From assembly GCF_036507355.1 (NCBI RefSeq), contig NZ_AP027877.1: a stretch of 64,000 bases of DNA; one strand, written 5' to 3'. A model generated the notes under the pieces. That model had not been told where the DNA came from. It saw nothing but the letters and a program-made list of their open reading frames with translations, and ran no database searches. The DNA is from Escherichia coli (lineage in GTDB: Bacteria > Pseudomonadota > Gammaproteobacteria > Enterobacterales > Enterobacteriaceae). This document shows positions 2,975-29,656 of the stretch, piece after piece (position 1 is the stretch's first letter; the number at the start of each line of letters is the position of its first letter). A program made the translations under genes and the position numbers.

Positions 2975-4492
2975 ATGTCTGAACAACACGCACAGGGCGC
3001 TGACGCGGTAGTCGATCTTAACAATGAACTGAAAACGCGTCGTGAGAAGCTGGCGAACCTGCGCGAGCAGGGGATTGCCTTCCCGAACGATTTCCGTCGC
3101 GATCATACCTCTGACCAATTGCACGCAGAATTCGACGGTAAAGAGAACGAAGAACTGGAAGCGCTGAATATCGAAGTCGCCGTTGCTGGCCGCATGATGA
3201 CCCGCCGTATTATGGGTAAAGCGTCTTTCGTTACCCTGCAGGATGTGGGTGGCCGCATTCAGCTGTACGTTGCCCGTGACGATCTGCCGGAAGGCGTTTA
3301 CAACGAGCAGTTCAAAAAATGGGACCTCGGCGACATCCTCGGCGCGAAAGGTAAACTGTTCAAAACCAAAACCGGCGAACTGTCTATCCACTGTACCGAG
3401 CTGCGTCTGCTGACCAAAGCACTGCGTCCGCTGCCGGATAAATTCCACGGCTTGCAGGATCAGGAAGCGCGCTATCGTCAGCGTTATCTGGATCTCATCT
3501 CTAACGATGAATCCCGTAACACCTTTAAAGTGCGCTCGCAGATCCTCTCTGGTATTCGCCAGTTCATGGTGAACCGCGGCTTTATGGAAGTTGAAACGCC
3601 GATGATGCAGGTGATCCCAGGCGGTGCCGCTGCGCGTCCGTTTATCACCCACCATAACGCGCTGGATCTCGACATGTACCTGCGTATCGCGCCGGAACTG
3701 TACCTCAAGCGTCTGGTGGTCGGTGGCTTCGAGCGTGTATTCGAAATCAACCGTAACTTCCGTAACGAAGGTATCTCCGTACGTCATAACCCAGAGTTCA
3801 CCATGATGGAACTCTACATGGCTTACGCAGATTACAAAGATCTGATCGAGCTGACCGAATCGCTGTTCCGTACTCTGGCACAGGATATTCTCGGTAAGAC
3901 GGAAGTGACCTACGGCGACGTGACGCTGGACTTCGGTAAACCGTTCGAAAAACTGACCATGCGAGAAGCGATCAAGAAATATCGCCCGGAAACCGACATG
4001 GCGGATCTGGATAACTTCGACTCTGCGAAAGCGATTGCTGAATCTATCGGTATCCACGTTGAGAAGAGCTGGGGTCTGGGCCGTATCGTTACCGAGATCT
4101 TCGAAGAAGTGGCAGAAGCACATCTGATTCAGCCGACCTTCATTACTGAATATCCGGCAGAAGTTTCTCCGCTGGCGCGTCGTAACGACATTAACCCGGA
4201 AATCACAGACCGCTTTGAGTTCTTCATTGGTGGTCGTGAAATCGGTAACGGCTTTAGCGAGCTGAATGACGCGGAAGATCAGGCGCAGCGCTTCCTGGAT
4301 CAGGTTGCCGCGAAAGATGCAGGTGACGACGAAGCGATGTTCTACGATGAAGATTACGTTACCGCACTGGAACATGGCTTACCGCCGACAGCAGGTCTGG
4401 GGATTGGCATCGACCGTATGGTAATGCTGTTCACCAACAGCCATACCATCCGCGACGTTATTCTGTTCCCGGCGATGCGTCCGGTGAAATAA
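2975..4492 (+). CDS. lysS: lysine--tRNA ligase
   Basis: 505-aa ORF, class II aaRS; typical LysS N-terminus [33 protein letters not shown]. Confidence 0.95.
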
Positions 4493-5504: not shown

Positions 5505-6260
5505 TTGAGTGCGGGACGCCTGAATAAAAAATCTCTGGGTATCGTGATGTTGTTATCGGTTGGACTGCTTTTGGCGGGCTGTTCGGGTAGCAAATCATCC
5601 GATACAGGAACGTATTCCGGCTCCGTTTACACCGTGAAACGGGGGGATACGCTATATCGTATTTCGCGCACCACGGGAACCAGCGTAAAAGAACTGGCGC
5701 GACTGAACGGCATTTCCCCCCCTTACACTATTGAAGTAGGTCAGAAACTAAAACTGGGTGGGGCGAAAAGTAGCAGTAGTACACGTAAATCAACCGCCAA
5801 ATCAACGACTAAAACCGCATCGGTTACACCGTCATCAGCGGTACCGAAATCTTCCTGGCCGCCAGTAGGGCAACGTTGTTGGTTATGGCCAACGACAGGG
5901 AAAGTTATCATGCCGTATTCGACAGCAGATGGCGGCAATAAAGGGATTGATATCTCAGCTCCACGGGGTACACCTATTTACGCCGCGGGTGCAGGAAAGG
6001 TGGTGTATGTGGGCAACCAGCTGCGTGGCTACGGTAATCTCATCATGATTAAACACAGTGAAGATTACATTACGGCTTACGCCCATAATGACACGATGCT
6101 GGTAAATAATGGGCAAAGCGTGAGGGCTGGGCAAAAAATCGCCACCATGGGGAGCACGGATGCGGCATCTGTTCGCCTGCATTTCCAGATTCGTTACCGT
6201 GCAACGGCAATTGATCCGCTACGTTACTTGCCGCCGCAGGGCAGCAAGCCAAAATGCTGA
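5505..6260 (+). CDS. ygeR: LysM/peptidase M23 lipoprotein YgeR
   Basis: Probable TTG start at 5505 preceded by GAGGA (the track ORF starts at an upstream ATG at 5481); lipobox LLAGC, LysM segment (YTVKRGDTLYRISR) and C-terminal M23 domain; located immediately upstream of glyU. Confidence 0.85.
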   Translation: MSAGRLNKKSLGIVMLLSVGLLLAGCSGSKSSDTGTYSGSVYTVKRGDTLYRISRTTGTSVKELARLNGISPPYTIEVGQKLKLGGAKSSSSTRKSTAKSTTKTASVTPSSAVPKSSWPPVGQRCWLWPTTGKVIMPYSTADGGNKGIDISAPRGTPIYAAGAGKVVYVGNQLRGYGNLIMIKHSEDYITAYAHNDTMLVNNGQSVRAGQKIATMGSTDAASVRLHFQIRYRATAIDPLRYLPPQGSKPKC

Positions 6261-6338: not shown

Positions 6339-6412
6339 GCGGGCGTAGTTCAATGGTAGAACGAGAGCTTCCCAAGCTCTATACGAGGGTTCGATTCCCT
6401 TCGCCCGCTCCA
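6339..6412 (+). tRNA. glyU: tRNA-Gly (anticodon CCC)
   Basis: 74-nt sequence GCGGGCGTAGTTCAATGGTAGAACGAGAGCTTCCCAAGCTCTATACGAGGGTTCGATTCCCTTCGCCCGCTCCA with cloverleaf and CCC anticodon. Confidence 0.97.
6390..6412 (+). repeat. attL core: 3' end of glyU (23 bp), direct repeat of 10585-10607
   Basis: TTCGATTCCCTTCGCCCGCTCCA occurs identically at 6390-6412 and 10585-10607. Confidence 0.85.
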
Positions 6413-6546
6413 TGACCTTTCTTAAAGTACTCCAACCTACTGAATCCTAAGGGATACGGCTTTAAGCCTTCCGCTAGTTTTACTCACTGTAACCAACACT
6501 GTAACTAAATTTGTTGAAATAGTGAGCAGACTTAAGATCTCAGTAC

Positions 6547-8178
6547 ATGCTCAACTCAAAAACCTATCTTTATCAGCGCAATGGCGTCTTTTATATCCGC
6601 CTCAGGATGAAGTCCACAGATCGCCTGACCGTTTCACATCCTTCCCATAGCCGTTATAAAATAGCGTCAGTATCACTACGGACTAAGGATAGACGTACAG
6701 CTATGGCTTACTCACGGCAAATCAAGGCAGCACTTAGGGCAATCCATGCAGACAGACCCAACGCCTCCTATGAGGAAATGAGGGAACACCTGAGGGACAT
6801 CGCAGAGTGGGAGTTGTCTACAGGTCGTTCAGACCTCTTCGAGCCAGATATGAGAGATCTATACCGTGACCAGTATGGGGAAGTGGGAGAGAATCTTGTC
6901 CATGCTCTGGCAAGCGAGCCACTGACTATTGACCAGCATCGCTATATTAATGAGGCTCTTAATGTACTCAAGGCCTGCATGAAGCGCATTGAAGCGGGAG
7001 ATAGCCAGCCACTTATAGATTATATAGATGGATTTGATGCTGCTGCTGGGGCTAATGGCCAAGCCTCTGCAACTCTATCTGTTAGTGCTCCCCAAAAAAC
7101 AAGCATTACTGAAGGCAAACACTGCGTAACCGTTGCTTCTCTCTTTGAGCAGTACGAGCAGGAAAACGCCCAGAACTGGAAGCCAGCAACATTACGAGAA
7201 AACAAAGCTTCTCATGCTGCGTTAATCGAAGTTTTTGATTATCTGGGCCTCAATGCTGACGCCAATGTGTTAGCTCGTGCGGATATGCTTAGGGTTCGGG
7301 ATATCCTCCAGCAATTGCCGAAGAATCGTAAGCAGCGTTTCAAAGATGTTCCGTTGGTTGACCTGCTAGGTCGTGAGGATAAAACCGATTGTCTGGATAT
7401 TGTTACCATCAATAATAAATATCTCATTAAGATGGCGGCTGTTTTCAAGTGGGCCGTGCGTAATGACCTGATTAAAAAGAATATGACAGAAGGGCTAGAG
7501 CTTAAGGTTCCCCAGCGTAAAGCCTCTGAGGCGCGTAATGCTTTCTCTACGGAGCAGGTAGGACAACTACTGGCTGCCGCCCAAGTTTACTCACAGAGAC
7601 CTTCTGGTAAGCCGTATCATTATTATGTTACCGCCTTGGCTGCTATCACTGGGGCGAGACTCAATGAAATAGCCCAACTACAGGTCAAAGACGTCAGGAC
7701 CACTGAGGCGGGAACCGTTTATATTCATATCAATGAAGACGATAGTAGTCTACCCGGTAAGAGCATCAAGAACGCTCATAGTGACCGCTGTGTGCCTCTG
7801 GTCGATGGGGCCTATGGTTTTATATTGGCTGACTTTATGAGGTTGGTTGAGACCCGTAGAGGCGCTGATGGTGATGACGCTATGGTGTTCGATGGTCTTC
7901 GCCTCATGAAGAACGGTTACGGTGAGCAGGTGAGTAAATGGTTTAATCGGACGTTGTTGCCTAAAGTCCTCGCAGACCGTAGCGGCTTAGCGTTTCACTC
8001 GTTTAGACATACAGTTGCGACCCAGTTAAAACAACATGGGGTCGAGTTGGCGTATGCACAGGCGATCATGGGGCATAGTTCAGGGTCTATTACTTACGAC
8101 CGTTATGCTAAAGAGGTTGAGGTTGATAGACTGGTCAATGTGATGGCTGATGTTTATAAGGAGGTTGTGGCCCCTTAA
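6547..8178 (+). CDS. tyrosine-type integrase (543 aa, extended N-terminal region)
   Basis: C-terminal catalytic motifs ARLNEI (Arg), HSFRHTVAT (H-x-x-R), GHSSGSITYDRYAK (Tyr); first gene after the tRNA att core. Confidence 0.85.
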   Translation: MLNSKTYLYQRNGVFYIRLRMKSTDRLTVSHPSHSRYKIASVSLRTKDRRTAMAYSRQIKAALRAIHADRPNASYEEMREHLRDIAEWELSTGRSDLFEPDMRDLYRDQYGEVGENLVHALASEPLTIDQHRYINEALNVLKACMKRIEAGDSQPLIDYIDGFDAAAGANGQASATLSVSAPQKTSITEGKHCVTVASLFEQYEQENAQNWKPATLRENKASHAALIEVFDYLGLNADANVLARADMLRVRDILQQLPKNRKQRFKDVPLVDLLGREDKTDCLDIVTINNKYLIKMAAVFKWAVRNDLIKKNMTEGLELKVPQRKASEARNAFSTEQVGQLLAAAQVYSQRPSGKPYHYYVTALAAITGARLNEIAQLQVKDVRTTEAGTVYIHINEDDSSLPGKSIKNAHSDRCVPLVDGAYGFILADFMRLVETRRGADGDDAMVFDGLRLMKNGYGEQVSKWFNRTLLPKVLADRSGLAFHSFRHTVATQLKQHGVELAYAQAIMGHSSGSITYDRYAKEVEVDRLVNVMADVYKEVVAP

Positions 8179-8179
8179 G

Positions 8180-8234
8180 GATGACCATAGGCGATGACCA
8201 TAGGCGATGACCATAGGCGATGACACTTGCTACT
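8180..8234 (+). repeat. tandem 13-bp iterons (GATGACCATAGGC x3 plus a variant GATGACACTTGCTACT)
   Basis: Three perfect head-to-tail copies starting one base after the integrase stop; the variant unit recurs at about 8391-8410. Confidence 0.8.
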
Positions 8235-8293
8235 ATTCCTATGGTCCCCTTTGTGGTCCTATGTGGTCCTGTGTGACCCTTTGTGTGGTCATG
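8235..8293 (+). repeat. cluster of TGGTCC/TGTGGTC short repeats
   Basis: ATTCCTATGGTCCCCTTTGTGGTCCTATGTGGTCCTGTGTGACCCTTTGTGTGGTCATG: about five degenerate copies of one motif. Confidence 0.7.
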
Positions 8294-8330
8294 TTTTGAC
8301 TCATAGTTTTCACTACTTGTCAAGCATATT

Positions 8331-8353
8331 TAATACGACTCACTATAGGGAGA
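8331..8353 (+). promoter_or_regulatory. bacteriophage T7 RNA polymerase promoter (exact 23-bp class III consensus)
   Basis: TAATACGACTCACTATAGGGAGA read directly, predicted +1 G at 8348; followed by a TCTCTCTCTGTCTCTCTC tract. Confidence 0.85.
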
Positions 8354-8584
8354 AGGGACACAAAAAGTTTTCTCTCTCTGTCTCTCTCTATGATGACACT
8401 TGCTACTACTTCAGGTAGCTTTAACTCTAACCGTAACTTATCGCATCCTTTCAGGGGCGGGATGACCAATTACAGACACCAAGCGTTCTACTTAAAATGA
8501 ATGCTTCCTGTGTGCTCTGGGTCAGTCGATAAGTGAATAGCCTTAGACATCATATTAATTATGGTCTCTAACCCCTACAGGGGC

Positions 8585-8729
8585 TTAACTTTAAGTATTA
8601 ACTTATAGTCTACTTAAAGACACAATTAAAGATTAACTTAAAGTATTAAATTATAGATTAATTAAAGACCAATTAAAGAGTAACTTTAAGTATTAACTTA
8701 TAGTCTACTTAAAGACACAATTAAAGATT
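8585..8729 (+). repeat. AT-rich iteron array with two ~48-bp direct repeats (TTAAAGA/TTAAAGAC units)
   Basis: AACTTTAAGTATTAACTTATAGTCTACTTAAAGACACAATTAAAGATT at about 8587-8634 and 8682-8729; preceded by CCCCTACAGGGG at about 8570. Confidence 0.8.
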
Positions 8730-8920
8730 GACTCTAAGGGAATACCTTAAGAGGTGATGATATTCATAATAATCAATCACCAAACCTATAGGTCTCCTCA
8801 AGGCATTACCCAGAAGCTAACTGTATGGCCCTGTATGGTCCTGTACGCCATTCTTTAGGATGCCATGTAGTTTCGTATGGCCTGATGCCTAGCGTGGCTC
8901 AGAGACCCTCCCAGTAGTAA

Positions 8921-8945
8921 ATCAATACGACTTACTAATAGGAGA
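8921..8945 (+). promoter_or_regulatory. degenerate T7-like promoter (putative)
   Basis: CAATACGACTTACTAATAGGAGACA: 18 of 23 positions match the T7 consensus, same orientation, about 230 bp upstream of the 9158 ORF. Confidence 0.45.
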
Positions 8946-9157
8946 CACACTCCGAACCACTCACCACGTGTCTCTCAAAGTTCCACCTCTCGCGCTTCAC
9001 CATACAGTAGCTCCGCACAGCTACGACACAATCATTCATTCAATCTCAAAGTCATTCTGTTTGCATCCTGTTGTCCTGCTGGTCTCCCTTCGCTTGGGGA
9101 CTTTGAGTGGGCCAGTAGGGGGCGGTTTAGTGTGCATATTTAAAAGGTAACCAAGCA

Positions 9158-9721
9158 ATGAACAATAAACATAAACATGCAGGTCATATTATCACTATTG
9201 AAGGCCACAGCTTTAAGTCTAATGAGTCTGGCATGTGGAATCTTACAGAAATATGGAAAATCCTCGGATTACCTAACAATAAGCTACCCTCTCAGTGGCG
9301 CGGCAAGGTAACAAAGAGGCTCACCGACATGCAAAAAATGCACGTCGAGAAGATTGGTATTGAAAGCATAACCTACGCAGACAAACAGGCTACCCTCAAG
9401 TATGCAGGATGGGTCTCTGAAGATTTCGAGGACATGGTCTATGCAGCCTTTGAGGCTATCCTTGAGATGCCTGAAGTTGCCACGGTCGTTGCTAATAAGA
9501 TGGTCGAACTTGGCTATCACGCTGAAGCTGAGCTATTGGAACGTCATAAGGACGACTATAGAGAAGCTATGCAGACCCTTAAAAAGATTGGTAAACGTGT
9601 TGACGGCAGGAAGCCTGAGCGCATCTACAAGGCCGTACTTAACGGTAATCTGACGAAATTTCAAGGGTTATCCATGATTTCTCGCAGCAGTGTCTGGTAC
9701 GCCCGAACAGTGAATCTATGA
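9158..9721 (+). CDS. hypothetical protein, possible KilA-N-like N-terminal domain
   Basis: 187-aa ORF with AAGGTAA upstream; N-terminal IITIEGHSFKSNESGMWNLTEIWKILG...AGWVSEDFEDMVYAAF is reminiscent of KilA-N/APSES-type domains (tentative, from recall). Confidence 0.5.
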   Translation: MNNKHKHAGHIITIEGHSFKSNESGMWNLTEIWKILGLPNNKLPSQWRGKVTKRLTDMQKMHVEKIGIESITYADKQATLKYAGWVSEDFEDMVYAAFEAILEMPEVATVVANKMVELGYHAEAELLERHKDDYREAMQTLKKIGKRVDGRKPERIYKAVLNGNLTKFQGLSMISRSSVWYARTVNL

Positions 9722-9844
9722 TGGCTATCGATCACGATAGATGCCAGCGATCAATTTCAGGTTACCGATCGAAACAAACGATCAGCACGATGGTTGCAAT
9801 CGGATATCATATTGACACTTGTCTGACATCCTGAAGGTATCAAT

Positions 9845-10318
9845 ATGTTTGGGCTTTTTAAGAAAAAGGCAAAAGCGGAAAGGTGTTATGATGTAACACG
9901 CATTCAATACGAGCTGGTTGTAATGTCATCTAAGCTGATAAAAAAACAGACCGATATGTTCAAAGTAATAAAAGGGGAGCGAGAGGAGGCTTTAGGAGAC
10001 CCTTTATTATCAGCAGGGTATATAACGCCATGGGTCATTGGATATTGCACTGGTCTCCTGGATGCAGTGACTCAGACGGAGGCTAACAGGATGGCATTTA
10101 CATCAGAAATGCTTGGGCTTCTTTTTGCTGCAGTTTTCGGTGATGATAAGTCTCTTGAGGCCATGGGAACTTATATAGCCTGTAACGAAGCCTCCTCACC
10201 AGACCATGGATTTCATGTTACGTATGAGCTTTATATGTCTGGTCTAGCGAAAGCGTTTAATGAGGTATGTGAGGATAAACCTGCGATAGGACTTCTGAAC
10301 TATTTAATGCAGGATTGA
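9845..10318 (+). CDS. hypothetical protein (157 aa)
   Basis: ORF with no recognisable motifs; TTGACA at about 9810 upstream; last ORF before attR. Confidence 0.45.
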   Translation: MFGLFKKKAKAERCYDVTRIQYELVVMSSKLIKKQTDMFKVIKGEREEALGDPLLSAGYITPWVIGYCTGLLDAVTQTEANRMAFTSEMLGLLFAAVFGDDKSLEAMGTYIACNEASSPDHGFHVTYELYMSGLAKAFNEVCEDKPAIGLLNYLMQD

Positions 10319-10584
10319 AAATTTCCCACAAAAATCTCAGTGCCTATCTAACAGTAATAACCCTGCAACATTCCCCCGTATACCTCCAGAAGTTATCCAG
10401 AAGCCGAAGTAGGTATCCTGTCATGTATTTGAATCATCAAAGTTGTTCGTTCTATTCCTCTTTAGGGAATATTACAGCCCTACAGCCTTGACCAGAGATC
10501 ACTTGATGTGTAACCATAACTGTAACCAAAAGGATTCATCATCCTTTAAGAAACAATTGGTTAGTGAGTGATTGTCTTCGATAC

Positions 10585-10607
10585 TTCGATTCCCTTCGCC
10601 CGCTCCA
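10585..10607 (+). repeat. attR of the 4.2-kb element (also proximal att of the next islet)
   Basis: 23-bp copy of the glyU 3' end; flanking sequence diverges from the tRNA. Confidence 0.85.
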
Positions 10608-10771: not shown

Positions 10772-11998
10772 ATGAAGCTGACTGCTCGTCAGGTTGAAAC
10801 TGCGAAACCCAAAGAGAAGCCCTACAAACTGGCCGATGGTGGTGGGCTTTACCTGCTGGTTAATCCCAACGGTAAAAGATACTGGCGTCTCAAATACCGT
10901 TCGTTAGGTAAAGAGAAGCTGCTCGCTATTGGCGTTTATCCCGATGTTTCTTTAGCTGAGGCCCGAAGTAAGCGTGAGGATGCTAAAAGAACATTAGCGG
11001 CTGGCAACGATCCCTCTCTTGAACGAAAAATTGAGAAACTTAGTCGTCAACAAGACGCTGAAAACTCGTTTGAGGCTATCACACGGGAGTGGTATCAGCG
11101 TCGCTATGACCGCTGGTCTGTCTCCTACCGCGAAGAAATGCTGAGAACCTTTGAGAAAGATGTATTTCCTTATATCGGTCACAGGCCAATCAAAGATATC
11201 AAGCCGATGGAGTTGCTTGCAGTTCTTTCAAAGATAGAAGCACGAGGGGCAACAGAGAAAGTCCGCAAGGTTCGTCAGCGTTGTGGAGAGGTCTGGAAGT
11301 ATGCCGTTGTGACTGGGAGGGCCGAGTACAATCCAGCACCTGATCTAGCCAGCGCCGTGAGTCCTCATGAGAAAGAGCACTATGCTTTTTTAACCCAGGA
11401 TGAATTGCCTGAGTTTCTTCGGACTCTGAACGCCTATGCCGGTAGTGTGCTTGTTAAGATTGCGATGCAATTGCTCATTTTAACAGGAGTAAGGCCAGGG
11501 GAGTTGAGGCAAGCGGAGTGGCAGGAGTTTGATTTTGAGAAAAAGGTTTGGAATGTACCAGCGGAACGTATGAAAATGCGCCGCCCTCATCTTGTTCCAT
11601 TATCAAGCCAGGCAATTGACCTGCTTAATCAACTTAAACCCATAACGGGAGCAGGAGCGTTATTATTCCCAGGACGTAATAATCCTAAGAAACCGATGAG
11701 CGATATGGCATTGACTGTGTTGGTCAGGCGTATCGGCTATGCCGGGCGCGTTACAGGGCATGGATTCCGCCACACGATGAGTACCATTTTGCATGAGCAG
11801 GGATTCAACTCGGCCTGGATTGAGTTACAGCTGGCTCACGTCGATAAGAACTCAATTCGTGGGACGTATAACCATGCTCAATATTTGGAAGGTCGGCGGG
11901 AGATGATGCAGTGGTATGGAGATTTCATCGGTCAAGCAGGCAAATCCGGATCATCGCTAGCTTATGCAGCTATTAGCTTGACTGCTGAATTAGAGTGA
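10772..11998 (+). CDS. P4-type tyrosine integrase
   Basis: 408-aa ORF; N-terminus MKLTARQVETAKPKEKPYKLADGGGLYLLVNPNGKRYWRLKY typical of P4-family integrases; HGFRHT and Y-containing C-terminal box; sits 165 bp after the tRNA-derived repeat. Confidence 0.9.
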   Translation: MKLTARQVETAKPKEKPYKLADGGGLYLLVNPNGKRYWRLKYRSLGKEKLLAIGVYPDVSLAEARSKREDAKRTLAAGNDPSLERKIEKLSRQQDAENSFEAITREWYQRRYDRWSVSYREEMLRTFEKDVFPYIGHRPIKDIKPMELLAVLSKIEARGATEKVRKVRQRCGEVWKYAVVTGRAEYNPAPDLASAVSPHEKEHYAFLTQDELPEFLRTLNAYAGSVLVKIAMQLLILTGVRPGELRQAEWQEFDFEKKVWNVPAERMKMRRPHLVPLSSQAIDLLNQLKPITGAGALLFPGRNNPKKPMSDMALTVLVRRIGYAGRVTGHGFRHTMSTILHEQGFNSAWIELQLAHVDKNSIRGTYNHAQYLEGRREMMQWYGDFIGQAGKSGSSLAYAAISLTAELE

Positions 11999-13182: not shown

Positions 13183-13202
13183 CGGCAGGCAGTGCCTGCC
13201 GG
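13183..13202. terminator. bidirectional hairpin between convergent genes
   Basis: CCGGCAGGCA-G-TGCCTGCCGG perfect inverted repeat between the 13131 and 13207 stop codons. Confidence 0.55.
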
Positions 13203-13206
13203 AGGA

Positions 13207-14910
13207 TTACTTTTTACTTCCAAATTGAATGCCGAGAAGTTTATTCTCTGCTTTATCGCCACGTAGAGTAAGAACAATTTTTGATTTCAGTTCTAACATT
13301 TCGATTTCAGATAAAGTTGTTTCCATAGCATTAAAGTTTTCAGTGTTTAAAGATGCTATATATTGCTTTCCGCTTCGTTTTAATGACTGATTGACAAATG
13401 AGAACCATCTTGCGCGAACACCTGGATCTATATCAGCAAAAAGACGGTTATCATGCCATAGCATATCCATGGCATGGTTTTCACCACATGTAAATACTAA
13501 CCAGTCAAAGCATAATATCCTAGCATCATTGATCCCATCCGAATCATCACCCTCGATTTGGATGCTTAGATCATAACGAATTTTGTTGTCACCAGTATTA
13601 ACATCCAAAACTATTCCTGCTGGTACCCTTGGGTACATTATTTCTGCGAGCTCAGCAAAAATTTTATCGTATTCTGAAAGAGGATTTGTAGAAGCATAGT
13701 TTACCGCTAATCTGTCTTGTTCAACTTTTCGTTCTCTTAGATTTTGAGCTTTCTGTTGAAGGTTAATAGAAAAATTTAAATAATCATGTAACCTTTCTTT
13801 TTCTTCTTTAAATTCAGCTAGTTGTCTAGCTATGACTGCGTATTCATCAAATGCTTTCTTGCCTTGCAGGGATTCCAAATATGAATCACGTAATGCTGAA
13901 ATATCCTTAATGTCAATTTTAAGAGATTCAATTTCTAACAAAAGTTTTACTTTATCATTTTCAAGTCTTTTCTTTCTGTTAAAAGATAATGATTTGTGAA
14001 AATTTTCAACTGACTCAAAATGGGCCAATGTTTCTGGCTTGAAAATCTCTTGTAAGCCATTGTACAGTTCAAGAAGCTCTTCTCTTGAAATGTCAGGGTG
14101 TTCTAATAAAGTTTTTTCTATATTATTTACTTTAAATTCAGCTATATTTTTGTTTTTTTCAACTTCTCGTAATTTTATAGTTAAACTGTTTGTTTCATTC
14201 TCAATAGCTCTGTATTGCTCGTGAACTTGAAATGCATTCAGTTCATCCTGCAGTCTTGGGATCTCTCTTTCTAGCCACTCATAGCGTACTTTAGGTTGAG
14301 AGCCTGCTCTAAACATGTCTTTTAGAATATCATCGTCTTGCCAATTTTTTAGCGATTGACTTACTTTATCCAGCTCTTGCTTATTATTTCTTTTAGATAA
14401 TATTAAATTATGATCTATACCGAGAAGAAATGCGGTACGAAGCAATGCTTCAAAGTCTTGCTCCTTTTTTGTCCTAGTTGGACTGATGCAGTCATCTCTG
14501 GTATATCGCGAAAAACGCTTAAATAAAGATCTGAATGATAAATACGGAATGTTATTCTCAAGATTAAATATTCCTATTTTATCTAATAAATCTTTAAATG
14601 CTTTTAAAGATATTGTTTTGTCATTTAATAATAATTTTTTTCCATTGCCCGTTCTAGATATTAAGTACTCAACTCCATTATGAGAAAAAAGTAAAGAGAA
14701 CCACCAATCTGGAACTGCTGAAGTTAATTTTTTATCAGCATTAGCTCCTAAACAATGTTGAATGAGACCGAGAATAAGTGTCTTACCGACTCCGTTACTA
14801 CTGCCTTCTTTTTCTTTAGAGCTATCACCAATGATCAACGTTAGTCCTGTATCATTGAAATGCACTGGATGAAAAGTTGGCTGATCGCAAGTTAAGCGAA
14901 TTAACTTCAT
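13207..14910 (-). CDS. SMC/ABC-type P-loop ATPase with long coiled-coil region (putative anti-phage ATPase)
   Basis: 567-aa ORF; Walker A GSSNGVGKT near the N-terminus; long K/E-rich heptad-like middle; start codon abuts the stop of the upstream 101-aa gene. Confidence 0.65.
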   Translation of the reverse strand: MKLIRLTCDQPTFHPVHFNDTGLTLIIGDSSKEKEGSSNGVGKTLILGLIQHCLGANADKKLTSAVPDWWFSLLFSHNGVEYLISRTGNGKKLLLNDKTISLKAFKDLLDKIGIFNLENNIPYLSFRSLFKRFSRYTRDDCISPTRTKKEQDFEALLRTAFLLGIDHNLILSKRNNKQELDKVSQSLKNWQDDDILKDMFRAGSQPKVRYEWLEREIPRLQDELNAFQVHEQYRAIENETNSLTIKLREVEKNKNIAEFKVNNIEKTLLEHPDISREELLELYNGLQEIFKPETLAHFESVENFHKSLSFNRKKRLENDKVKLLLEIESLKIDIKDISALRDSYLESLQGKKAFDEYAVIARQLAEFKEEKERLHDYLNFSINLQQKAQNLRERKVEQDRLAVNYASTNPLSEYDKIFAELAEIMYPRVPAGIVLDVNTGDNKIRYDLSIQIEGDDSDGINDARILCFDWLVFTCGENHAMDMLWHDNRLFADIDPGVRARWFSFVNQSLKRSGKQYIASLNTENFNAMETTLSEIEMLELKSKIVLTLRGDKAENKLLGIQFGSKK

Positions 14911-15216
14911 TTAACTTTCCTTATTTTTTAATTTGTCATAATTGCAACAGATTGGCATTATTCTGTTTTCATTATCTAGCGTTATTTGTTTGATGCAAAA
15001 AAGAATGTCTACGGCAAGTATAAATTGTGTAAAAGAGGGCGTGATTATCGTTGATTTATTTTTCCGCTCTATTTTTGTCCATAGTTCTTCTATGGATACC
15101 GGTCCATCAATTAACGAACGGATGTATCCTGCAATCGCAATTAGGGAGTTACTAAACCTAACATGCTTATGTGGCAGAAGCATTGCTTGGATGTTCATAA
15201 GCATCACATGTCTCAA
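14911..15216 (-). CDS. small hypothetical protein coupled to the ATPase
   Basis: 101-aa ORF whose stop (14911-14913) is immediately followed by the ATPase ATG (14908-14910), suggesting translational coupling. Confidence 0.5.
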   Translation of the reverse strand: MRHVMLMNIQAMLLPHKHVRFSNSLIAIAGYIRSLIDGPVSIEELWTKIERKNKSTIITPSFTQFILAVDILFCIKQITLDNENRIMPICCNYDKLKNKES

Positions 15217-15390
15217 AATATTTAGCTAAAATTAACTCTGCAGCAAATCGATAACTCGCGACCGCACTTGTGGGAACTTGCGGGGGAAGGAGTTTATCTA
15301 TCATCCAAGTATATCTTAAATCTGCATAATTGTGGTTATCTTCAGTTATCGCCAATTTACTTTTTGCATAAGTATCTCTAACTTCTTGAG

Positions 15391-16173
15391 CTATAGTTTG
15401 TTCAAGACCACAAGACCATTATCAACAGAATCTAAAAATTCATTTATCAAATATAGTTGATAGCTAAAAGATTCCAGCCTGCTTTTTATTGGTTTTGTAA
15501 TACCATTTATTTTTATTTTATCTTCGAAGTCCGGGGCTGTTTCACTTAAAAAATTCATGGGTGAAGAAGATTTTTGTGCTAAAAAAGTCAATACTTCACC
15601 AACAGCTCGAGTATCTGTAAAGTCTAAATTAACCTCAGGAATGAAACCTACAATATCTTGCTTTTCACCCTCGGATAATGACATAAACTTTTGAAGGAGC
15701 TCCATCCCACCCATTGCACCTGCGTGATTAAGACTTTTACTGATTGCAAGTGTATTTAATGAAAGTCCAACAGGTGCTGGAATACCCTTGAAATAATCAT
15801 TCATTACAAAAGTATATTTTGATACTTTCCCCCATTTGGCGACTAATTTATCAAAGTCGCCAATCGATTTATTAACAGCTTCTAGCTCTTTGGTTTGATT
15901 TGAAGGTTTAGGTCCATAAACTTGGAAGTAATGAGCCTCATGAGCAATCCACCCATCATTCCCGCCATCTCCCCAGTTTCCCCAAGGGGAAACAGCTTGA
16001 AAGCCAGGAGTCGCGTATTGCATAACCTTCGAAAAAAGCGCCTGAAAACTGTCTCCCATACATTCATGTACTTTTAACCGAAAGAACTGTCTGTAGAGGT
16101 AATCTTGCTGTGTCGAACTCATTTTCCTCTCATCCATGATGAACACTTTTGATGATAATATCCTCTCATTCAT
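15391..16173 (-). CDS. hypothetical protein (260 aa), first gene of the ATPase operon, candidate effector
   Basis: ORF with WGNWGDGGNDGWIAHEAHYF segment; no confident family assignment. Confidence 0.5.
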   Translation of the reverse strand: MNERILSSKVFIMDERKMSSTQQDYLYRQFFRLKVHECMGDSFQALFSKVMQYATPGFQAVSPWGNWGDGGNDGWIAHEAHYFQVYGPKPSNQTKELEAVNKSIGDFDKLVAKWGKVSKYTFVMNDYFKGIPAPVGLSLNTLAISKSLNHAGAMGGMELLQKFMSLSEGEKQDIVGFIPEVNLDFTDTRAVGEVLTFLAQKSSSPMNFLSETAPDFEDKIKINGITKPIKSRLESFSYQLYLINEFLDSVDNGLVVLNKL

Positions 16174-16332
16174 TGTTGTAAACCTATGATTAGCAAAATT
16201 GGAGATGCTTTCACTTTAGAGTTGGTATCTAAAGGTTATAAATTATCAAAACAGGTTGTATAGATATCAAATTGAATACGATTTGACATATATGTTAATC
16301 TGATTAGTATCAGAGAAAAACAGGAGTCCTTA

Positions 16333-23812: not shown

Positions 23813-24790
23813 TCACTCTAATGCTTTTTGAGCAGCAAGTTCAAGTTCACTTTTTCCATGAAGTGCCAAAGACATATGGCATTCCGCTAGAAGGCAATAA
23901 CATTCTGTTTTTAGCGTCTGTATATCACTTTTATTTTGTAATCCATCAAATATAGTCATGGCCCTGTAAATGCTTTCAGGGGTGAACTCGTAAAGTTCTT
24001 TCTTTCCGGCTAACATTTCATCTGATAAATAATGATTCTTATATCCTTGGTCCTGCTTAGCTAATCTTACAGATCGTTCTGGTTTATGTACCGTTTGAAG
24101 GATATTATCTATAATAAATTGTGATGTATTATGTAGTTCATCAACAGGGAGATGATTACTGGCGATGAGGAAAAGGTTTTTAGCGTCGATCAACTCAATG
24201 TATAAAGTGTTCACTGCATTATTCTGGTTTATTCTTCCTGTAACGAAATAATCTGGCTTGAATCTGCTCAAGAATGAATTTTGAGATATGTGGTCATTAC
24301 AAAAATTTGTCGCAGCCATCGGATAGGTATAGAGACCATCGATTTTTTTATTTGAAATGATTTGTACTAATTCCTGATTAAGTATTAATGGATCCAGTGT
24401 ATTCAATGAAGTGGTGAAAGGGAATATAGCTATGGAATAGTCTGAAGTATTATCTTCATTAATTTTAGTTTTGAAAACCTGCCCGCTGAAACGATAACCT
24501 TTCCGGTAGATTGTTTCTATGCAGCGATCATAGCCAATTTTTTCAAAAATGCAGCGCAAAGAATAGATACATCTTGTCAGGGACTCGTCACTAACAATAA
24601 TATTTTTCCATACTGATTCGATGATCATATCTTTCAGTACAACATGACCAGCGGATTCAAGTAATACTATTAATACACCTAACTCTTTCGGTGGAATATA
24701 AACTTGCTCATTTCCTTGAGTAAGAATTCCATCTTCCGTGAGCGTTAATCCCTCAAGAAAATGATATGAGAATTTATTTTCTAAGTCCAT
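23813..24790 (-). pseudogene. ygeH: ygeH-like HilA/ToxR-type regulator (ETT2), 3'-truncated by the IS3-family element
   Basis: 325 aa with N-terminal winged-helix region; the reading frame stops on the TGA that is the first triplet of the IS terminus; K-12 YgeH is about 458 aa (recall). Confidence 0.65.
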
Positions 24791-25123
24791 TAGTTAACCT
24801 CTATGAAAAAATTGGTTTCTTGCATCCTGCATAAGCAATAGAAATTATGGCTATTCATATTTATATGTCATTAACGCTACAGGAGTTTACATTCGACATA
24901 TCTATGGTTGTGTTCACTAATTTATCTTAGGAATTCAGTGATGTAATCTGAAATAGCCTTATTCAATTTTGATAAAGTAAAATGCTCTCTAAAGCATTGA
25001 AAAATAATGATTTATTGTATGCTCTTAACTGTTTTAAGATGCTGATTTAAGAAAAGATAAGAGGTGCTGGTTATAGTGGTTAATGCACTATAACCAGCAA
25101 TTTTAACCAAATGATTGTAATGC

Positions 25124-25615
25124 TTAGTTATTATCTTCTGAATTATCGGTTAAGAGTTCGACATATGCCTGCGCTTTACTCTTAACACTATCATCCTCAC
25201 AATTGTTAATAATATGAAAGAAACATTGCATTGCGTTATCGATATTTTTAGCCCCAATTTGACATTGACCCATACGATAAATAACTGAATAGTCATCATA
25301 TGGCGAGTAATTATAACTTAGCTTGTAAAGGTCATATGCTTGTTGATATTTCTTTTTTGACTGACATACTGATGCAAAACCTTTTAGATATTCATGATTT
25401 TCGAACGCATAAATGCACAATAATTTATAATAAATTTCTGCCTCCGTTATATTACCCTTTTCATGGTAGTCGAATGCATATGCATATATTCTATCAAGGA
25501 TATCAGGAGTCAAACCATGTAGTAATGCCAGATTTTCTCCTTTCGATAATGCGTGTTTTAGTTGATTTGCCCATTCATCACTATTATTGAATATTTCAAT
25601 TGTTTCTGTGTCCAT
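25124..25615 (-). CDS. ygeG: TPR-containing type III secretion chaperone-like protein YgeG
   Basis: 163-aa acidic TPR protein, SicA/class II chaperone-like; ETT2 position. Confidence 0.7.
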   Translation of the reverse strand: MDTETIEIFNNSDEWANQLKHALSKGENLALLHGLTPDILDRIYAYAFDYHEKGNITEAEIYYKLLCIYAFENHEYLKGFASVCQSKKKYQQAYDLYKLSYNYSPYDDYSVIYRMGQCQIGAKNIDNAMQCFFHIINNCEDDSVKSKAQAYVELLTDNSEDNN

Positions 25616-25861
25616 AATATTCCTCTGTGATGTGTCTCGTGATGCTAAATTATTATTGATTGACTCATTAATATTTCTACATTTATCTTTTTTAAATTAT
25701 GAGTTTTAAGCTTGCATTGCTTATGAGTATATTTCTTCATTATTAGTAAAATTACTGTCCACTACAAACTAATTACATTATTAGTTATTTTGATAATATT
25801 CACCTTATTAGTAATCTTAATTACGACATTCCATAAATGCCTTAATGTGCATGACCATGAT

Positions 25862-26266
25862 TCATATTATCAATTTCCATTTTTCGATCAAAATTAAAAA
25901 GGGGATTTTTGCGAAGGGGCGAATGTCGTTTGTTTTTTTTTCTTTATTATGTCTGGTGATGAGGGGGGATAGAACGTCGGTGCATATAGTAGAGAATTTA
26001 TCCAGGTCTAAATTATTCTCTATTTTGGTCAGTTTTATGAGTTCATTTGTAGCCATACTCATTAAATCATCTGTTATCGGAAATTTATATATGCTCATAG
26101 CAGATAATATTGCTTGCTGAATTATTTCTTCAGAAAAATCCGCTATCTTTATTGACAAATCATGTATTTGATATTTTCCTCCAAGAGATTCTTGTTCAAT
26201 ATAATTTAAACCAGACCTCATAGTAATTTTAACTGGATTAACGAATTTTTCTTCATTTTTCTTCAT
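25862..26266 (-). CDS. ETT2-associated hypothetical protein (ygeF-like)
   Basis: 134-aa AT-rich ORF in the ygeF position relative to ygeG; no motif support. Confidence 0.35.
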   Translation of the reverse strand: MKKNEEKFVNPVKITMRSGLNYIEQESLGGKYQIHDLSIKIADFSEEIIQQAILSAMSIYKFPITDDLMSMATNELIKLTKIENNLDLDKFSTICTDVLSPLITRHNKEKKTNDIRPFAKIPFLILIEKWKLII

Positions 26267-26759
26267 TTTTCTTATTTTTGTTCTCCTGATCAGGAACTAA
26301 TGGTTGCAGTGGTAGGCTATTATTAATATTTCGTGGCTTCATTTTACATTTCTCTCATTTGATTAGAGCAAAATCCGAACTCGCAGCTTCTGATAATGTC
26401 AAATATCACCTTTTCTCATACTTTATTCTATCAAAAATCGCTCATTTTTACTTTTTTTACCATAATGTTACTTTGTAGCATCGGCAATTTACATAACTTA
26501 CACGTTGTTTTTTATATCCTGAAAAAACAGATAGATAGTGTGCGCACTCGAAATGATATTGGTAACATAAATAGCTTTATTCGTGATAAACATCTCAAAA
26601 GATTTCCTTTATTATATTCGAAATTCATTTGATCAAGGTTATCACCTTATGGAGACGTTACGTAGAATGACTATATTTGTTATCGGCACATTAGGGGTAT
26701 TAATTTTAGTATTGATGGAAGGTGATTATTGAACAGTAACATCGAGTCACGGTAAAAAT

Positions 26760-27197
26760 GTGAGGTATATAATGGATATTGAGTTTTCGCAGATTCATGA
26801 AATGGTCTATATGCATGATATTGTAAATTCGGACTCGAAAAAGAAACCAAGGATTCCGTTAAAAAAATTCCTTAATGCTGAGAAGGTTCTCACGCAAACA
26901 ACATCATGGGCATTAAATTCAAGATATGTGAATGTTAATTCTGTTAATAATGCCAACGTAAAGAGTAAAGTTAAAAACAGTTATATCTCACGATCTGTCA
27001 ATGATGAGTTTAGTTTAACAGATGATGAAATCAATTCTTTTAAAGAAACGTTAGTCCTTTCCTCTATTGATTCACTGAGTAAACTGGTTCTTAATAATCC
27101 TCTTTCTGTATTGTTTACTTCGACTGTACGAAGGAATAATAATCGAGCTAAGATGAATGTAGAGTTCGACTCATGGATTTGCACCAGATGTTGTTGA
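26760..27197 (+). CDS. yqeK: hypothetical protein YqeK-like
   Basis: 145-aa ORF; size, orientation and position match K-12 yqeK. Confidence 0.45.
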
Positions 27198-27345
27198 TAC
27201 ATGATATTTTACATTGCAAGGGGATGTCTGAAATGAAAGATGTTGATCAAAACTTTGATGCTTTAGACTGCCATATACTGCAAGCATATTTAATTTTATT
27301 GTTTTATGATTAACGAGGTTCCATCTTTTTGTTATCTATTTTAGT

Positions 27346-27840
27346 TTACCTTGCACAATGCATTATTGCTCTGTTACCAATACTCAAAATAAAAGCATGC
27401 TTACCTTGCTTTAGTATATTATAGCTTACACTTTTTTCTGGAAAGACATAAAAATCAGGAATAAGTTCTGCAAGTCTATCATCATCGACTTGATCCATAA
27501 TCTCAAACTTATTAACTTTCTTTGATGTTAAATGGGCTGTGTCATAGTTTTCAACCCATGTGTATTCAATATTTCGCCGTATTGATTTACTTTCTCTGTT
27601 ACCTTGTTGCCAGGTTCCACTCAACGCAACAGTTCCTGTTTTATTTTTTTGGTTATACATAAAGTCGATAGTAAGATTTGCTCGCCCCTGGTCATTAAAA
27701 ATTACCCAATTTGCAGTGCATGTCTCATTATATATCATTTTTTCTGCAGTGTAAGAATAGACAGTGAAGAGAATAAACCCACTGATAAAAACTAAAATAA
27801 ATAATAAGTTTTTTTTATAATCAATCACGATTAACCTCAC
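27346..27840 (-). CDS. yqeJ: hypothetical membrane-anchored protein YqeJ
   Basis: 164-aa ORF with N-terminal TM helix; overlaps the end of yqeI, suggesting an operon. Confidence 0.55.
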   Translation of the reverse strand: MRLIVIDYKKNLLFILVFISGFILFTVYSYTAEKMIYNETCTANWVIFNDQGRANLTIDFMYNQKNKTGTVALSGTWQQGNRESKSIRRNIEYTWVENYDTAHLTSKKVNKFEIMDQVDDDRLAELIPDFYVFPEKSVSYNILKQGKHAFILSIGNRAIMHCAR

Positions 27841-28630
27841 GGTAAGACAGGGTTAAACAGCCTGCCACTTCATGTTGGTTATAGTTTTTATTGCATGCCA
27901 TAACAATCATCCCCGGTGAGGATTTTGCAAGAGGGAAGTATAACCACGGATATTTTTTACAGTTAATCCCCGAATCCAATATCCGTGTTTTATATTTATC
28001 GAACTCTTTCAACCCATCAATTGTATCTTCTGTTACATTAAAATGGCAGCCATTAATTTCCGCAACAATCTTGTAATCCTTGAAAAATGGCTTCGGTTGA
28101 TTATTATTCCATAGCCAATATGCAAAATATGCGCCTATGACAAATGCGCTCAACATAATTAGATGACTTTTTATATGTTTGAGGATTTTGTTATTGAAAT
28201 TCTTTGCGCCACCAATGCTCTCTTTGTATCCCGCATTAACTTTTATGGCCGGTGGGGTATTGTGTGTATGTGCGTCTGTTGACGAGTTTATTACATGATT
28301 TTGTATGTTAATGTCATTATGGATCTTGAATCCTCTTCTCGGCACGGTTGCAATAAGTGAGTGGGTAGTATCACCAACAGCGCGAAATCCGCGTCTGATA
28401 ATGGATATGTTCTGATATAACGTGTTAGTTGGCACACGCATACCTTCTTCTTCCCAGACTCTGGTGAAAAAATCTTGTTGTGCAACCACATCAGGAAAAG
28501 CTTCAAGTAGAAGGGATAAACAACGACTGGCTGGCGTTGTCAGAACGACGTTAAGATCGGCGTTATGTACCGATATTAATTTTCGGTGCTCAGGCCAGAA
28601 CTCGATATTATCGTTAATAATCCAGTACAT
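27821..28630 (-). CDS. yqeI: ToxR-like winged-helix transcriptional regulator YqeI
   Basis: 269 aa; N-terminal OmpR/ToxR-type DNA-binding region followed by a TM segment (LIMLSAFVIGAYFAYWLW). Confidence 0.65.
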   Translation of the reverse strand: MYWIINDNIEFWPEHRKLISVHNADLNVVLTTPASRCLSLLLEAFPDVVAQQDFFTRVWEEEGMRVPTNTLYQNISIIRRGFRAVGDTTHSLIATVPRRGFKIHNDINIQNHVINSSTDAHTHNTPPAIKVNAGYKESIGGAKNFNNKILKHIKSHLIMLSAFVIGAYFAYWLWNNNQPKPFFKDYKIVAEINGCHFNVTEDTIDGLKEFDKYKTRILDSGINCKKYPWLYFPLAKSSPGMIVMACNKNYNQHEVAGCLTLSYREVNRD

Positions 28631-28963
28631 ACGTCAATAAACACTAAATCAATCGAAATGGAAATCACATAGTTTGCTAAGTATATTGGTATTTACGGCA
28701 TAAATATATATTAATTTTATATTTATCATGATGATTGAAATGAGGCTTTAATGGCGCAACGTAAAACTTTATATAAATTAACATGGTTAACATTTATGCC
28801 ACTATTGTTGATAAATTCATATTTCGTAATGCTTCTGAATTTTTCGTGTGATGGTTTTAAATACTATGTTGTTTACTCTTGGGGTTACTGCTTATTTATA
28901 AAATACGGGCATTCCAATAGATGCCCGTATAAGCAGAGTATGATTCTGGCAGATCGTTGAGTA

Positions 28964-29656
28964 TTAATGTTGGACCGAATGTGAACGAATAAATAACTCG
29001 TTTATTTTACCACCCATTCTCTTTTCGATTCGTTGCTTGTACGCGTAGATGCTACGGATATCCATATCCAGAACTTCAGTAATCTGATATGGGTTATAAC
29101 CAGAAACCATATACCCCATTATGGTGAATTCCATCTGAGTTAATGTGTTACCTCTGGTAAATGATAAATAACGACCAATAAATAGTTGTCTGATCTTTTC
29201 ATTGGCAACATCAAGACCATCATCATTATATATGACAGCAGATATTGCAGAGTTGTGCTTTCGCCAGTAGTTAGCTAACGATTGCATATTGCGGTCGCTG
29301 ACTAAAACAATCCCCATGTCAGTACTTGCAAGATAGTCAATCCAGTCTTTTTCAAGGAATAGACGTAAAAAACTTACTGAAAAATCGACAAAAATATATC
29401 CGCTTAATCTCGCATTGTGGTTTTTTGTTAAGATACCTTCCACCACACCACGATTAAAATATGAACTTTCTTCGGGCCACATACAAAAACACGAGTTTGC
29501 GCAATACTGAAAACGCGGTGACTCTTCTGGCATTATTTGGCAATGCATTGAGCAACTATTGCATGTAAGACTTTTATAACGACTACAAAGCCCCATGTTA
29601 AGAACCTCCCTATCCGTATATAATTGCATAATTTCATTGGTTATTGATGATGTCAA
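28964..29656 (-). CDS. yqeH: LuxR-family (GerE-type HTH) regulator YqeH
   Basis: 230 aa with C-terminal HTH (LTQMEFTIMGYMVSGYNPYQITEVLDMDIRSIYAYKQRI). Confidence 0.6.
   Translation of the reverse strand: MTSSITNEIMQLYTDREVLNMGLCSRYKSLTCNSCSMHCQIMPEESPRFQYCANSCFCMWPEESSYFNRGVVEGILTKNHNARLSGYIFVDFSVSFLRLFLEKDWIDYLASTDMGIVLVSDRNMQSLANYWRKHNSAISAVIYNDDGLDVANEKIRQLFIGRYLSFTRGNTLTQMEFTIMGYMVSGYNPYQITEVLDMDIRSIYAYKQRIEKRMGGKINELFIRSHSVQH

Follow-up and report, generated by a model that had tools for sequence, protein, structure and literature searches.

Bacteriophage T7 is the textbook strictly lytic phage, and its replication origins, worked out in Richardson's laboratory, each combine a phage promoter with an AT-rich region downstream of it. 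In 2006, Chen and Schneider described islands with tandem T7-like promoters (Nucleic Acids Res 34:1133; PMC1380254), which are reported to be enterobacterial and 4-13 kb long, to carry two or three T7-like promoters, a tyrosine integrase and flanking direct repeats, and to have no RNA polymerase gene. Here we analyse a member of what we take to be the same island family, found in a 64,000-nt stretch of Escherichia coli chromosomal DNA (contig NZ_AP027877.1 of RefSeq assembly GCF_036507355.1), hereafter the window, to which unassigned coordinates refer. The island occupies 4195 bp (6413-10607) at tRNA-Gly(CCC) (gene 6339-6412), and it agrees with this description: an exact T7 promoter (P1) and a degenerate one (P3) lie within 620 nt, together with an integrase gene and flanking repeats and without a polymerase gene. 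Between the two promoters stands an AT-rich array of short repeats, entered through a palindrome and left through a hairpin (Table 1). We propose that these three elements may form the AT-rich half of a T7-type replication origin, carried by a 4.2-kb integrative satellite of T7-like phages, a reading that we place slightly above even odds (roughly 0.55). The array would be a T7-type origin in an unusual place, and the element a type of satellite new to experiment.

Plasmids furnished with three cis elements of T7, an origin, a pac site and the terminal repeat, are known to be replicated, packaged and transduced by the phage (PMC13236587, which cites Chung & Hinkle 1990). Like these transducing plasmids and phagemids, the island has counterparts of the same three cis elements on a small circle without phage genes, and by analogy its circle would be expected to be packaged as multimers. 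Unlike the plasmids, which are engineered, the island is natural; its junction is split by integration and would be reassembled on excision, one of its cut sites lies in the integrase frame, and its analogue of the 160-bp T7 terminal repeat measures ~925 bp.

Small satellites (~5-6 kb) that are packaged as head-size multimers are known from Vibrio (PICMI; PMC10803314) and from marine VEIMEs (PMC9618062). In both cases these are, as here, small integrative elements without capsid-remodelling genes, and PICMI depends on virulent helpers (PMC10803314), like the helpers that we propose. PICMI, however, encodes its own primase and an AlpA regulator whereas the island encodes no replication function, and packaged PICMI ends are headful-like and random, with no pac site identified, whereas the island mimics a promoter, an origin and specific cut sites. 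In PICI and SaPI origins, iterons flank an AT-rich region, and the island likewise has a repeat array with an AT-rich core. PICI origins, however, rely for recognition on a Rep helicase and primase that the island itself encodes; the present island has no such gene, and the units match the origin of the helper instead. In our literature search, neither satellites of T7-like phages nor mimicry of the T7 junction came up as the subject of a paper, and no later paper treated tandem-promoter islands as satellites; the text of Chen and Schneider 2006 lay outside its reach.

The AT-rich array and the replication origins of T7

A first-pass annotation of the window, made from its letters alone, had noticed direct repeats of 48 bp in this AT-rich stretch and compared them with the terminal-repeat and concatemer-junction sequences of T7. 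The repeats are real, and in fact identical over 49 nt (8586-8634 and 8681-8729, 95 nt apart). Repeat search extends them to a direct-repeat family of 58 nt (8586-8643 and 8681-8738, 95% identical, again 95 nt apart) with a diverged middle copy between them (8634-8691, 71%), and the array therefore consists of three tandem units of ~47.5 nt each. Within it we count 14 TTAAAG, TTTAAG or TTATAG cores at a spacing of 11-14 nt, mostly 11-13, and its autocorrelation peaks at lags of 12, 13 and 24. No other part of the island is as rich in A+T: the array reaches 82% in 100-nt windows (vs 56% island-wide) and holds 77-82% A+T over 153 nt, where at least ~60 bp would be expected of a T7-type origin. 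The 49-nt duplication is lineage-specific: relatives from E. coli (L012) and Serratia (L014) have a shorter array of ~110 nt, built of like-type units and without the 49-nt repeat, and in a further relative (L011) the array is rearranged. Conservation concerns the AT-rich array and its ~12-nt units rather than the 48-bp repeat.

The whole 39.9-kb T7 genome was scanned with the window array by the Smith-Waterman method, and z scores were taken against 300 dinucleotide shuffles. Ranked by score, the T7 windows 341-560, 5861-6100 and 39221-39400 come first, second and next, and these are the three T7 origins: the AT region of phiOL (z 6.8), the primary origin (z 5.8) and the region downstream of phiOR (z 4.6). 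In all three, the observed score was reached by 0 of 300 shuffles. A blastn comparison with T7 alone picked out T7 414-498, after phiOL, and 5927-6017, after phi1.1B in the primary origin. The arrays of four relatives likewise find their best T7 matches in the origins; those of L012 and L014 are collinear with T7 5923-6010 (z 7.5 and 6.9), and the array of the Pectobacterium island (L004), compared with the scanned parts of its own phage, scores best against a promoter plus AT region that follows the RNA polymerase gene.

The layout is also that of a T7 origin. In the primary origin (phi1.1A/phi1.1B plus an AT-rich region, ~5848-6000) and in the secondary ones (phiOL, phiOR), a promoter points into ~12-nt TTAAAG-type units, and here P1 lies upstream of the array and points into it. 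P1 is the sole T7 promoter match in the 64 kb at up to 3 mismatches (0 expected), and together with its first transcribed bases it is closest to phiOR (85% over 40 nt). T7 origins and array are similar in sequence and, in the relatives, collinear (z 5.8-7.5 overall), and both carry recognition 5-mers of the gene 4 primase on the bottom strand, in the array GTGTC at 8619 and 8714 and TGGTC at 8667. Where the T7 origin has its primase site GACCC, L012 and the window have GACCA or GACAC in the corresponding position. These 5-mers (GGGTC, TGGTC, GTGTC) are dense throughout the 979-bp stretch between the integrase gene (int) and the KilA-N-like gene (8179-9157), which holds no plausible gene: we find 24 of them vs 4.9 +/- 2.0 in shuffles, that is, 24.5/kb as compared with 8/kb in T7 and 3.9/kb in the rest of the window.

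The hairpin that follows the array has its match downstream of phiOR. The best T7 match of 8730-8800 is 39271-39410 (z 5.6-5.8, 0 of 500 shuffles), a region which holds the only GGTGAT-N-ATCACC of T7 (39329), and in Serratia the stem reads TGTGAT...ATCACA, a compensatory change. At the other end, the entrance palindrome had been likened in the first-pass annotation to the T7 element CCCCCATAGGGGG. T7 does carry TAAAGAC and CCTAAAG arrays and CCCCCATAGGGGG near its terminal repeat, as its sequence confirms, and a palindrome is present near 8570. As a DNA hairpin, however, it is weak (a 4-bp stem; -3.4 kcal/mol for the surrounding 41-nt stretch), it is not placed like its supposed T7 equivalent, whose positional counterpart lies at ~10371-10384, and in an alignment of relatives conservation is limited to its 3' half TACAGGGGCT; we reject the equivalence. 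In L011, a CCCTACAGGGGC box aligns to the 3' part of the T7 promoter phi1.1B (TCACTATAGGAG), ahead of the origin AT region, and the Pectobacterium island has a real promoter where the window island has the palindrome. The AT region of T7 origins spans ~60-90 nt whereas the island array, which includes a recent 95-nt duplication, spans 153 nt; and the T7 origins reside in a phage, whereas the candidate origin resides in a bacterial island.

A sceptical explanation would deny the array any sequence-specific role and see in it an AT-rich spacer or a silencer bound by H-NS, with the 49-nt repeat a product of recent slippage or duplication. H-NS generally silences AT-rich DNA in E. coli, and a lineage-specific duplication fits this explanation well. 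However, an AT-rich array occupies the same position in E. coli, Serratia, Pectobacterium and Proteus (71-79% A+T, between the first and the last promoter in L004, L006, L011, L012 and L014), although its counterpart in the Pseudomonas island L008 has 62% A+T, and the similarity to T7 origins exceeds that of composition-preserving shuffles. We hold the silencer explanation to be very unlikely.

The units could instead be iterons or operators at which a protein of the island, most probably the KilA-N-like one, would bind and control replication or expression, as in PICI and plasmid origins. In its favour, there are 14 regularly spaced units, KilA-N is a DNA-binding fold encoded by a conserved core gene of the family, and the number and order of units turn over between close relatives as iterons do. 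Yet origins of the iteron type have their cognate Rep, helicase or primase in the element, and here none is found: the island encodes just the integrase, the KilA-N-like protein and a 157-aa open reading frame (ORF), with no virion structural gene and no polymerase gene, and among these three proteins no replication, packaging, initiator, helicase or primase family was recognised in Pfam, PHROGs, PADLOC or NCBIfam. Moreover, the units match origin regions of T7 itself, which has no KilA-N protein, and the KilA-N proteins have diverged to ~50% identity while the TTAAAG word is constant from E. coli to Pseudomonas. Iterons are thus a decidedly unlikely explanation.

Closer to the proposal of the first-pass annotation, the array could be a packaging accessory. 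In that case it would correspond to the CCTAAAG/TAAAGAC arrays or to the region next to phiOR, and a phage protein, such as the small terminase subunit, would bind or bend it. Words of the TAAAGAC type are indeed common to the array and the T7 repeats at 160-350, immediately outside the terminal repeat (z 5.8), and this part of the suggested likeness stands. Arrays of ~12-nt units are typical of protein-binding arrays, this one sits between a phiOR-like promoter and a phiOR-type hairpin, and junction mimics are present in the island; furthermore, Chung and Hinkle in 1990 are said to have found the phiOR region to be required in cis for packaging of T7 plasmids. The likeness does not extend to the T7 ends, however. 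The array resembles neither the terminal repeat (z 1.2 vs T7 1-160, with no blastn match either) nor the right-hand repeats that adjoin the cut (z 1.4 vs 39560-39777); it is separated by 1.5-1.6 kb from either cut-site mimic, whereas in T7 the repeats are immediate neighbours of the terminal repeat; and the best collinear alignments fall in the primary origin, far from the T7 ends. A packaging accessory therefore seems improbable to us, and an origin remains the explanation that we prefer for the array.

Concatemer-junction mimics and a proposed cycle

T7 and a Pectobacterium T7-like phage have near-identical left boundaries of the terminal repeat, AAAAATCTGAGTGACTA/TCTCACAG (the slash marks the boundary), and at the right boundary both read ...CCCT and then A(T/C)CTGTTA. 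We find neither the left-cut consensus, with CCCCC(A/G)TA ~25 nt inside, nor the right end ...CCCT with its ATCTGTT pause motif in 8560-8760. The surrounding 8180-9160 gave no blastn match among 50,697 phage records at E<=1e-5, and at E<=10 promoter and weak AT-region matches alone. The mimicry of a concatemer junction that had been ascribed to the array is thus not there; it belongs to the element as a whole, which carries both cut sites elsewhere.

The left-cut mimic, CACAAAAATCTCAGTGCCTA/TCTAACAG at 10327-10354, agrees with T7 AAAAATCTGAGTGACTA/TCTCACAGTG at 23 of 27 core positions, where shuffled motifs reach 18 at most, and it is the sole match in the 64 kb (0 expected). The cut is predicted between 10346 and 10347, and ~25 nt inside it TTCCCCCGTATACC is the positional counterpart of T7 TTCCCCCATAGGGGG. 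Six relatives carry the motif downstream of their last ORF (L001, L011, L012, L004, L006 and L014). When 10300-10430 was compared by blastn with all 50,697 phage records, 117 matched; among the matches listed, all are T7-sized phages (~38-41 kb), several of them named T3- or T7-like, and wherever the position of the match is known, it is a genome end or an annotated terminal repeat.

The right-end mimic lies in frame inside int. T7 reads CTCTGTGTCCCT/ATCTGTTACAG at this boundary, which the window island matches at 17 of 23 positions; L012 has CTCTGTGTCCCTATCTGTTA (CTCTGTGTCCCT followed by ATCTGTTA) and matches T7 at 20 of 20. The site of L020 (GACTCTGTGTCCCTATCTGTTA) is likewise of the T7 type, and the right end of the Pectobacterium island is ATCCCT/ACCTGTTA (GTATCCCT followed by ACCTGTTA), identical to that of its own phage. 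The pause variants are helper-specific: E. coli islands have ATCTGTT, and ACCTGTT is common to the Pectobacterium island and its phage. The site stands in frame within a low-complexity linker of the integrase in six islands, of which five are distinct in their flanking sequence.

On the plus strand the order is P1, array, genes, left-cut site, att, 5' part of int and right-end site, which is the T7 order of phiOR, left cut, terminal repeat and right end with its pause motif, on the same strand. The two cut-site mimics are adjacent (925 bp apart, across attP) solely in the excised circle or its multimers. Since integration splits the junction, it is complete only after excision.

What the analysis shows is which sequences are present, in what order and on which strand, how closely they resemble T7 and cognate phages, and how far they are conserved across genera. 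From this we infer each biochemical step of the following cycle. The RNA polymerase of an infecting T7-like phage would start at P1 and transcribe through the array, where, in easily melted DNA, the transcript could prime T7 DNA polymerase. The gene 4 helicase-primase would then load and use the bottom-strand GTGTC and TGGTC sites, and the phage replisome would copy the island, which would need no replication gene of its own. The integrase would excise the island, and the circle would join the left-cut site to the right-end/ATCTGTT site across attP, yielding a junction analogue of ~925 bp. Read-through from P1 would reach this junction, and the phage terminase would cut there and package a multimer, about nine copies per 40-kb head.

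Several observations speak against an origin and a satellite of this kind. The array begins 238 nt past P1 vs ~15 nt from promoter to AT region in T7, and the gap holds two conserved blocks, A and B. The similarity to origins comes partly from AT-richness and a short TTAAAG word in common, and T7 is poor in AT-rich stretches, which therefore surface in any scan; the words of the array also occur in the TAAAGAC repeats, with the z score of 5.8 given above. In two more distant members of the family (L013, L015) promoters are present and an AT-rich array is not obvious. As to mobility, no excisionase was recognised in the island, P1 in the integrated state is directed away from int, and the right-end site of the window matches T7 less well than those of its relatives.

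An island family and its candidate helper phages

Homologs of the KilA-N-like protein fall into 94 clusters in Enterobacterales and Pseudomonas. Loci in Pectobacterium, Proteus, Serratia and Pseudomonas share one plan, in which an integrase of ~500-560 aa is followed by 1-1.5 kb of non-coding DNA and then by the KilA-N-like gene with a few small ORFs, and the enterobacterial relatives (Pectobacterium, Proteus, Serratia) are also found at tRNA-Gly(CCC). Among 5426 complete E. coli genomes, 350 (~6%) contain related non-coding regions. We give an even chance to the idea that these islands are satellites of virulent T7-like phages which have no replication or packaging genes and would parasitise their helpers by cis mimicry alone, through helper-specific polymerase promoters, a T7-type origin and an excision-dependent junction, and which would be widespread in Enterobacterales and Pseudomonas, ferrying anti-T7 defences such as RAZR.

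Much of what a satellite should look like is found: an integrase with flanking att repeats at a tRNA gene, no structural genes, mimics of both T7 cut sites and, at the level of sequence, phage-polymerase promoters whose type varies with the host genus. Each relative has two to four promoters of the single-subunit-polymerase type, and the type varies by host (T7, K11, T3-like, Pectobacterium-type, gh-1-like): ATTAACGACTCACTA... in Pectobacterium, AATTAACCCACACTATAGGGAGA in Proteus, AATTGCGACTCACTATAGGGAGA in Serratia and TTAAAAACCCTCACATATAGGGAGA in Pseudomonas. L012, from E. coli strain 4/2-1, bears in tandem promoters of the K11 type (AATTAGGGCACACTATAGGGAGA), which match annotated promoters of Klebsiella phages, of the T7 type and of a third type, an arrangement which suggests that it is able to respond to several helper phages. 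A long block of phage homology is seen in the Pectobacterium island alone. Its P1 region is 82% identical over 296 nt (E 3e-65) to a block that comprises the last 39 nt of the terminase gene (gene 19), phiOR and ~145 nt beyond (L004 3969-4258 vs Pectobacterium phage ON995367 38771-39058, including the hairpins downstream of phiOR). This block is evidence that island and helper have recently exchanged sequence. For the L012, Serratia and Proteus islands, the search for extended phage homology gave promoter-only matches or none.

How might such islands have arisen? The closest full-length phage homologs of the integrase are those of temperate T7-like Pseudomonas phages (31% identity, 98% coverage, 2e-60), in which int lies between phiOR and the right terminal repeat. 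Because of both this homology and this position, the sequences suggest that the island family descends from the right end of a temperate T7-like phage. Pseudomonas phage vB_PsyP_3MF5 (L023), of the Studiervirinae, is an example of a temperate T7-like phage with int. A decayed T7-like prophage is an unlikely identity for the island, which has no remnants of structural genes, a gene set that is stable across genera, and cis sites that track current phages.

The same ancestry could be taken in a different direction. The island could be an immobile cassette for defence or abortive infection, in which phage-polymerase promoters sense the infection and the array and the cut sites are inert leftovers of an ancestral temperate T7-like phage. 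An integrase closest to temperate T7-like phages fits this, P3 is degenerate in the window island, and some relatives carry an anti-T7 gene adjoining int (PMC13017515). This is PD-T7-4, a DUF4145 gene (PADLOC 8e-99) found directly after or next to int in L012 (2655-3287) and also in L013, L014 and L024; the window island is without it. PD-T7-4 is now called RAZR and encodes an RNase which responds to phage portal proteins and acts against T7 by abortive infection (PMC13017515). Leftovers, however, are not expected to covary with current helpers, and the cis elements do track the local phage, as shown by ACCTGTT and the 82% phiOR block in Pectobacterium and by ATCTGTT in E. coli. In addition, the right-end site is kept in frame inside int in the six islands mentioned, five with distinct flanks, the left-cut site is kept in six relatives, and related regions are present in 350 of 5426 E. 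coli genomes. We thus regard an inert cassette as unlikely and favour mobile satellites. Beyond the Pectobacterium island itself, just outside it, lies a Kiwa defence pair, KwaA/KwaB (L004 9436-10558).

The exact array and the left-cut pattern are absent from IMG/VR, and matches of the leader pattern (see below) in IMG/VR come solely from proviral predictions in isolate genomes, not from virion DNA. None of the short Logan contigs is circular; the att core forms the start of both L024 and L026, and the end of L026 alone.

If T7-like phages do replicate and package the islands, phages of the T7 group would be a driving force of specialised horizontal transfer among E. coli and its relatives, and the presence of anti-T7 defence genes at this tRNA-Gly locus would be explained. 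The islands would show, in compact natural form, what T7 replication and packaging minimally require in cis and, because they keep only what is needed, would offer comparative data on the role of the TAAAG repeat arrays and of the phiOR hairpin.

Further features of the island and its surroundings

Table 1. Features of the island and of a multi-promoter relative (window coordinates unless a locus is named; a slash marks a cut site)
Feature	Position	Strand	Remarks
attL core TTCGATTCCCTTCGCCCGCTCCA	6390-6412	+	3' end of tRNA-Gly(CCC)
Tyrosine integrase, 543 aa	6547-8178	+	phrog_1 integrase 2.6e-42; Xer-type NCBIfam matches
Right-end + ATCTGTT pause-motif mimic	7063-7087	+	in frame inside int; GCCTCTGCAACTCT/ATCTGTTAGTG; upstream part CTCTGCAACTCT
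Three tandem GATGACCATAGGC copies	8180-8218	+	directly 3' of int stop codon
~10-nt repeats (C/T)(T/A)TGTGGTCC	8239-8294	+	partly inverse of the 13-nt repeats
P1, exact T7 class III consensus promoter TAATACGACTCACTATAGGGAGA	8331-8353	+	directed at array
Conserved block A, hairpin CATCC-TTTCAGGGGCG-GGATG then ACAGACACCA	8429-8481	+	
Conserved block B GGGTCAGTCGATAAGTGAATAG	8519-8540	+	invariant alignment columns
CCCCTACAGGGG palindrome, array entrance	8572-8583	+	
AT-rich array	8586-8738	+	three ~47.5-nt units, equal to 14 TTAAAG-type units of ~12 nt
Hairpin GGTGAT-N17-ATCACC after array	8753-8781	+	
P3, degenerate class II-like T7 promoter AATACGACTTACTAATAGGAGACACAC	8924-8950	+	closest to phi4.3, phi1.6
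Conserved structured leader	9051-9150	+	directly upstream of KilA-N-like gene
KilA-N-like protein, 187 aa, family core gene	9158-9721	+	Pfam KilA-N 0.0027; phrog_129 7.8e-10
157-aa ORF	9845-10318	+	no family recognised
Left-cut (pac) site + terminal-repeat start mimic	10315-10384	+	CACAAAAATCTCAGTGCCTA/TCTAACAG...TTCCCCCGTATACC
attR core, island right end	10585-10607	+	same 23-mer as attL
L012 tandem promoters	3288-3420, 3865-3890		K11-type, T7-type and a third type

P1, array and P3 are all directed towards the KilA-N-like gene and the 157-aa ORF. P3 is 92% identical to phi4.3 and phi1.6, with one gap, and relatives have an intact promoter of their own type in its place. The 157-aa ORF gave no match in Pfam, PHROGs, PADLOC or NCBIfam and has no similarity to the DUF6971 protein of relatives.

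The two blocks between P1 and the array are well preserved. Block A, whose hairpin is followed by ACAGAC, is nearly invariant among the E. coli and Serratia relatives, and its stem covaries in more distant ones (TTTCC/GGAAA in Proteus, CTCC/GGAG in L013). In Proteus and L013, a second (A)CAGG(G)CGGA box stands at the array entrance. Ahead of P1, every copy of the 13-nt repeat contains the primase 5-mer TGGTC on the bottom strand, and the ~10-nt repeats contain four TGGTC on the top strand. In L011 (strain MARGA_3; 3448-3690) there are 12 copies of the 13-nt repeat followed by inverted repeats of the TGTGGTCC type; in the same locus P1 is duplicated, and the motif AATCAATACGA occurs three times upstream of P3. 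We also considered whether the array provides arm sites for att, and rejected this at its distances of 2.1 kb from attL and 1.8 kb from attR.

The leader (~100 nt) starts with AAGTC(A/T)TTCTG and is predicted to form 31 pairs, 13 of them with compensatory changes across 9 islands. It is found in relatives at L004 4880-5004, L006 4895-5004 and L008 4895-5008, and also in L012-L016, and an Rfam search of 8100-9300 returned no family at E<=1. The leader might be a processing or stabilising hairpin of the RNase III type, as in T7 mRNAs, or else an element of translational control.

In strain SBF22 (NZ_CP067235) the island occurs alone, without a neighbour island. In the window it shares its att site with an unrelated second island (10608-~23500), which comes next in tandem and in turn occurs alone in NZ_OZ197100. 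This second island carries an integrase gene (10772-11998), a low-GC three-gene locus of the ABC-three-component type that includes a DUF2326 protein (~13200-16200) and an ars operon. A further low-GC block, with 31-36% G+C, spans 24000-30000 of the window.

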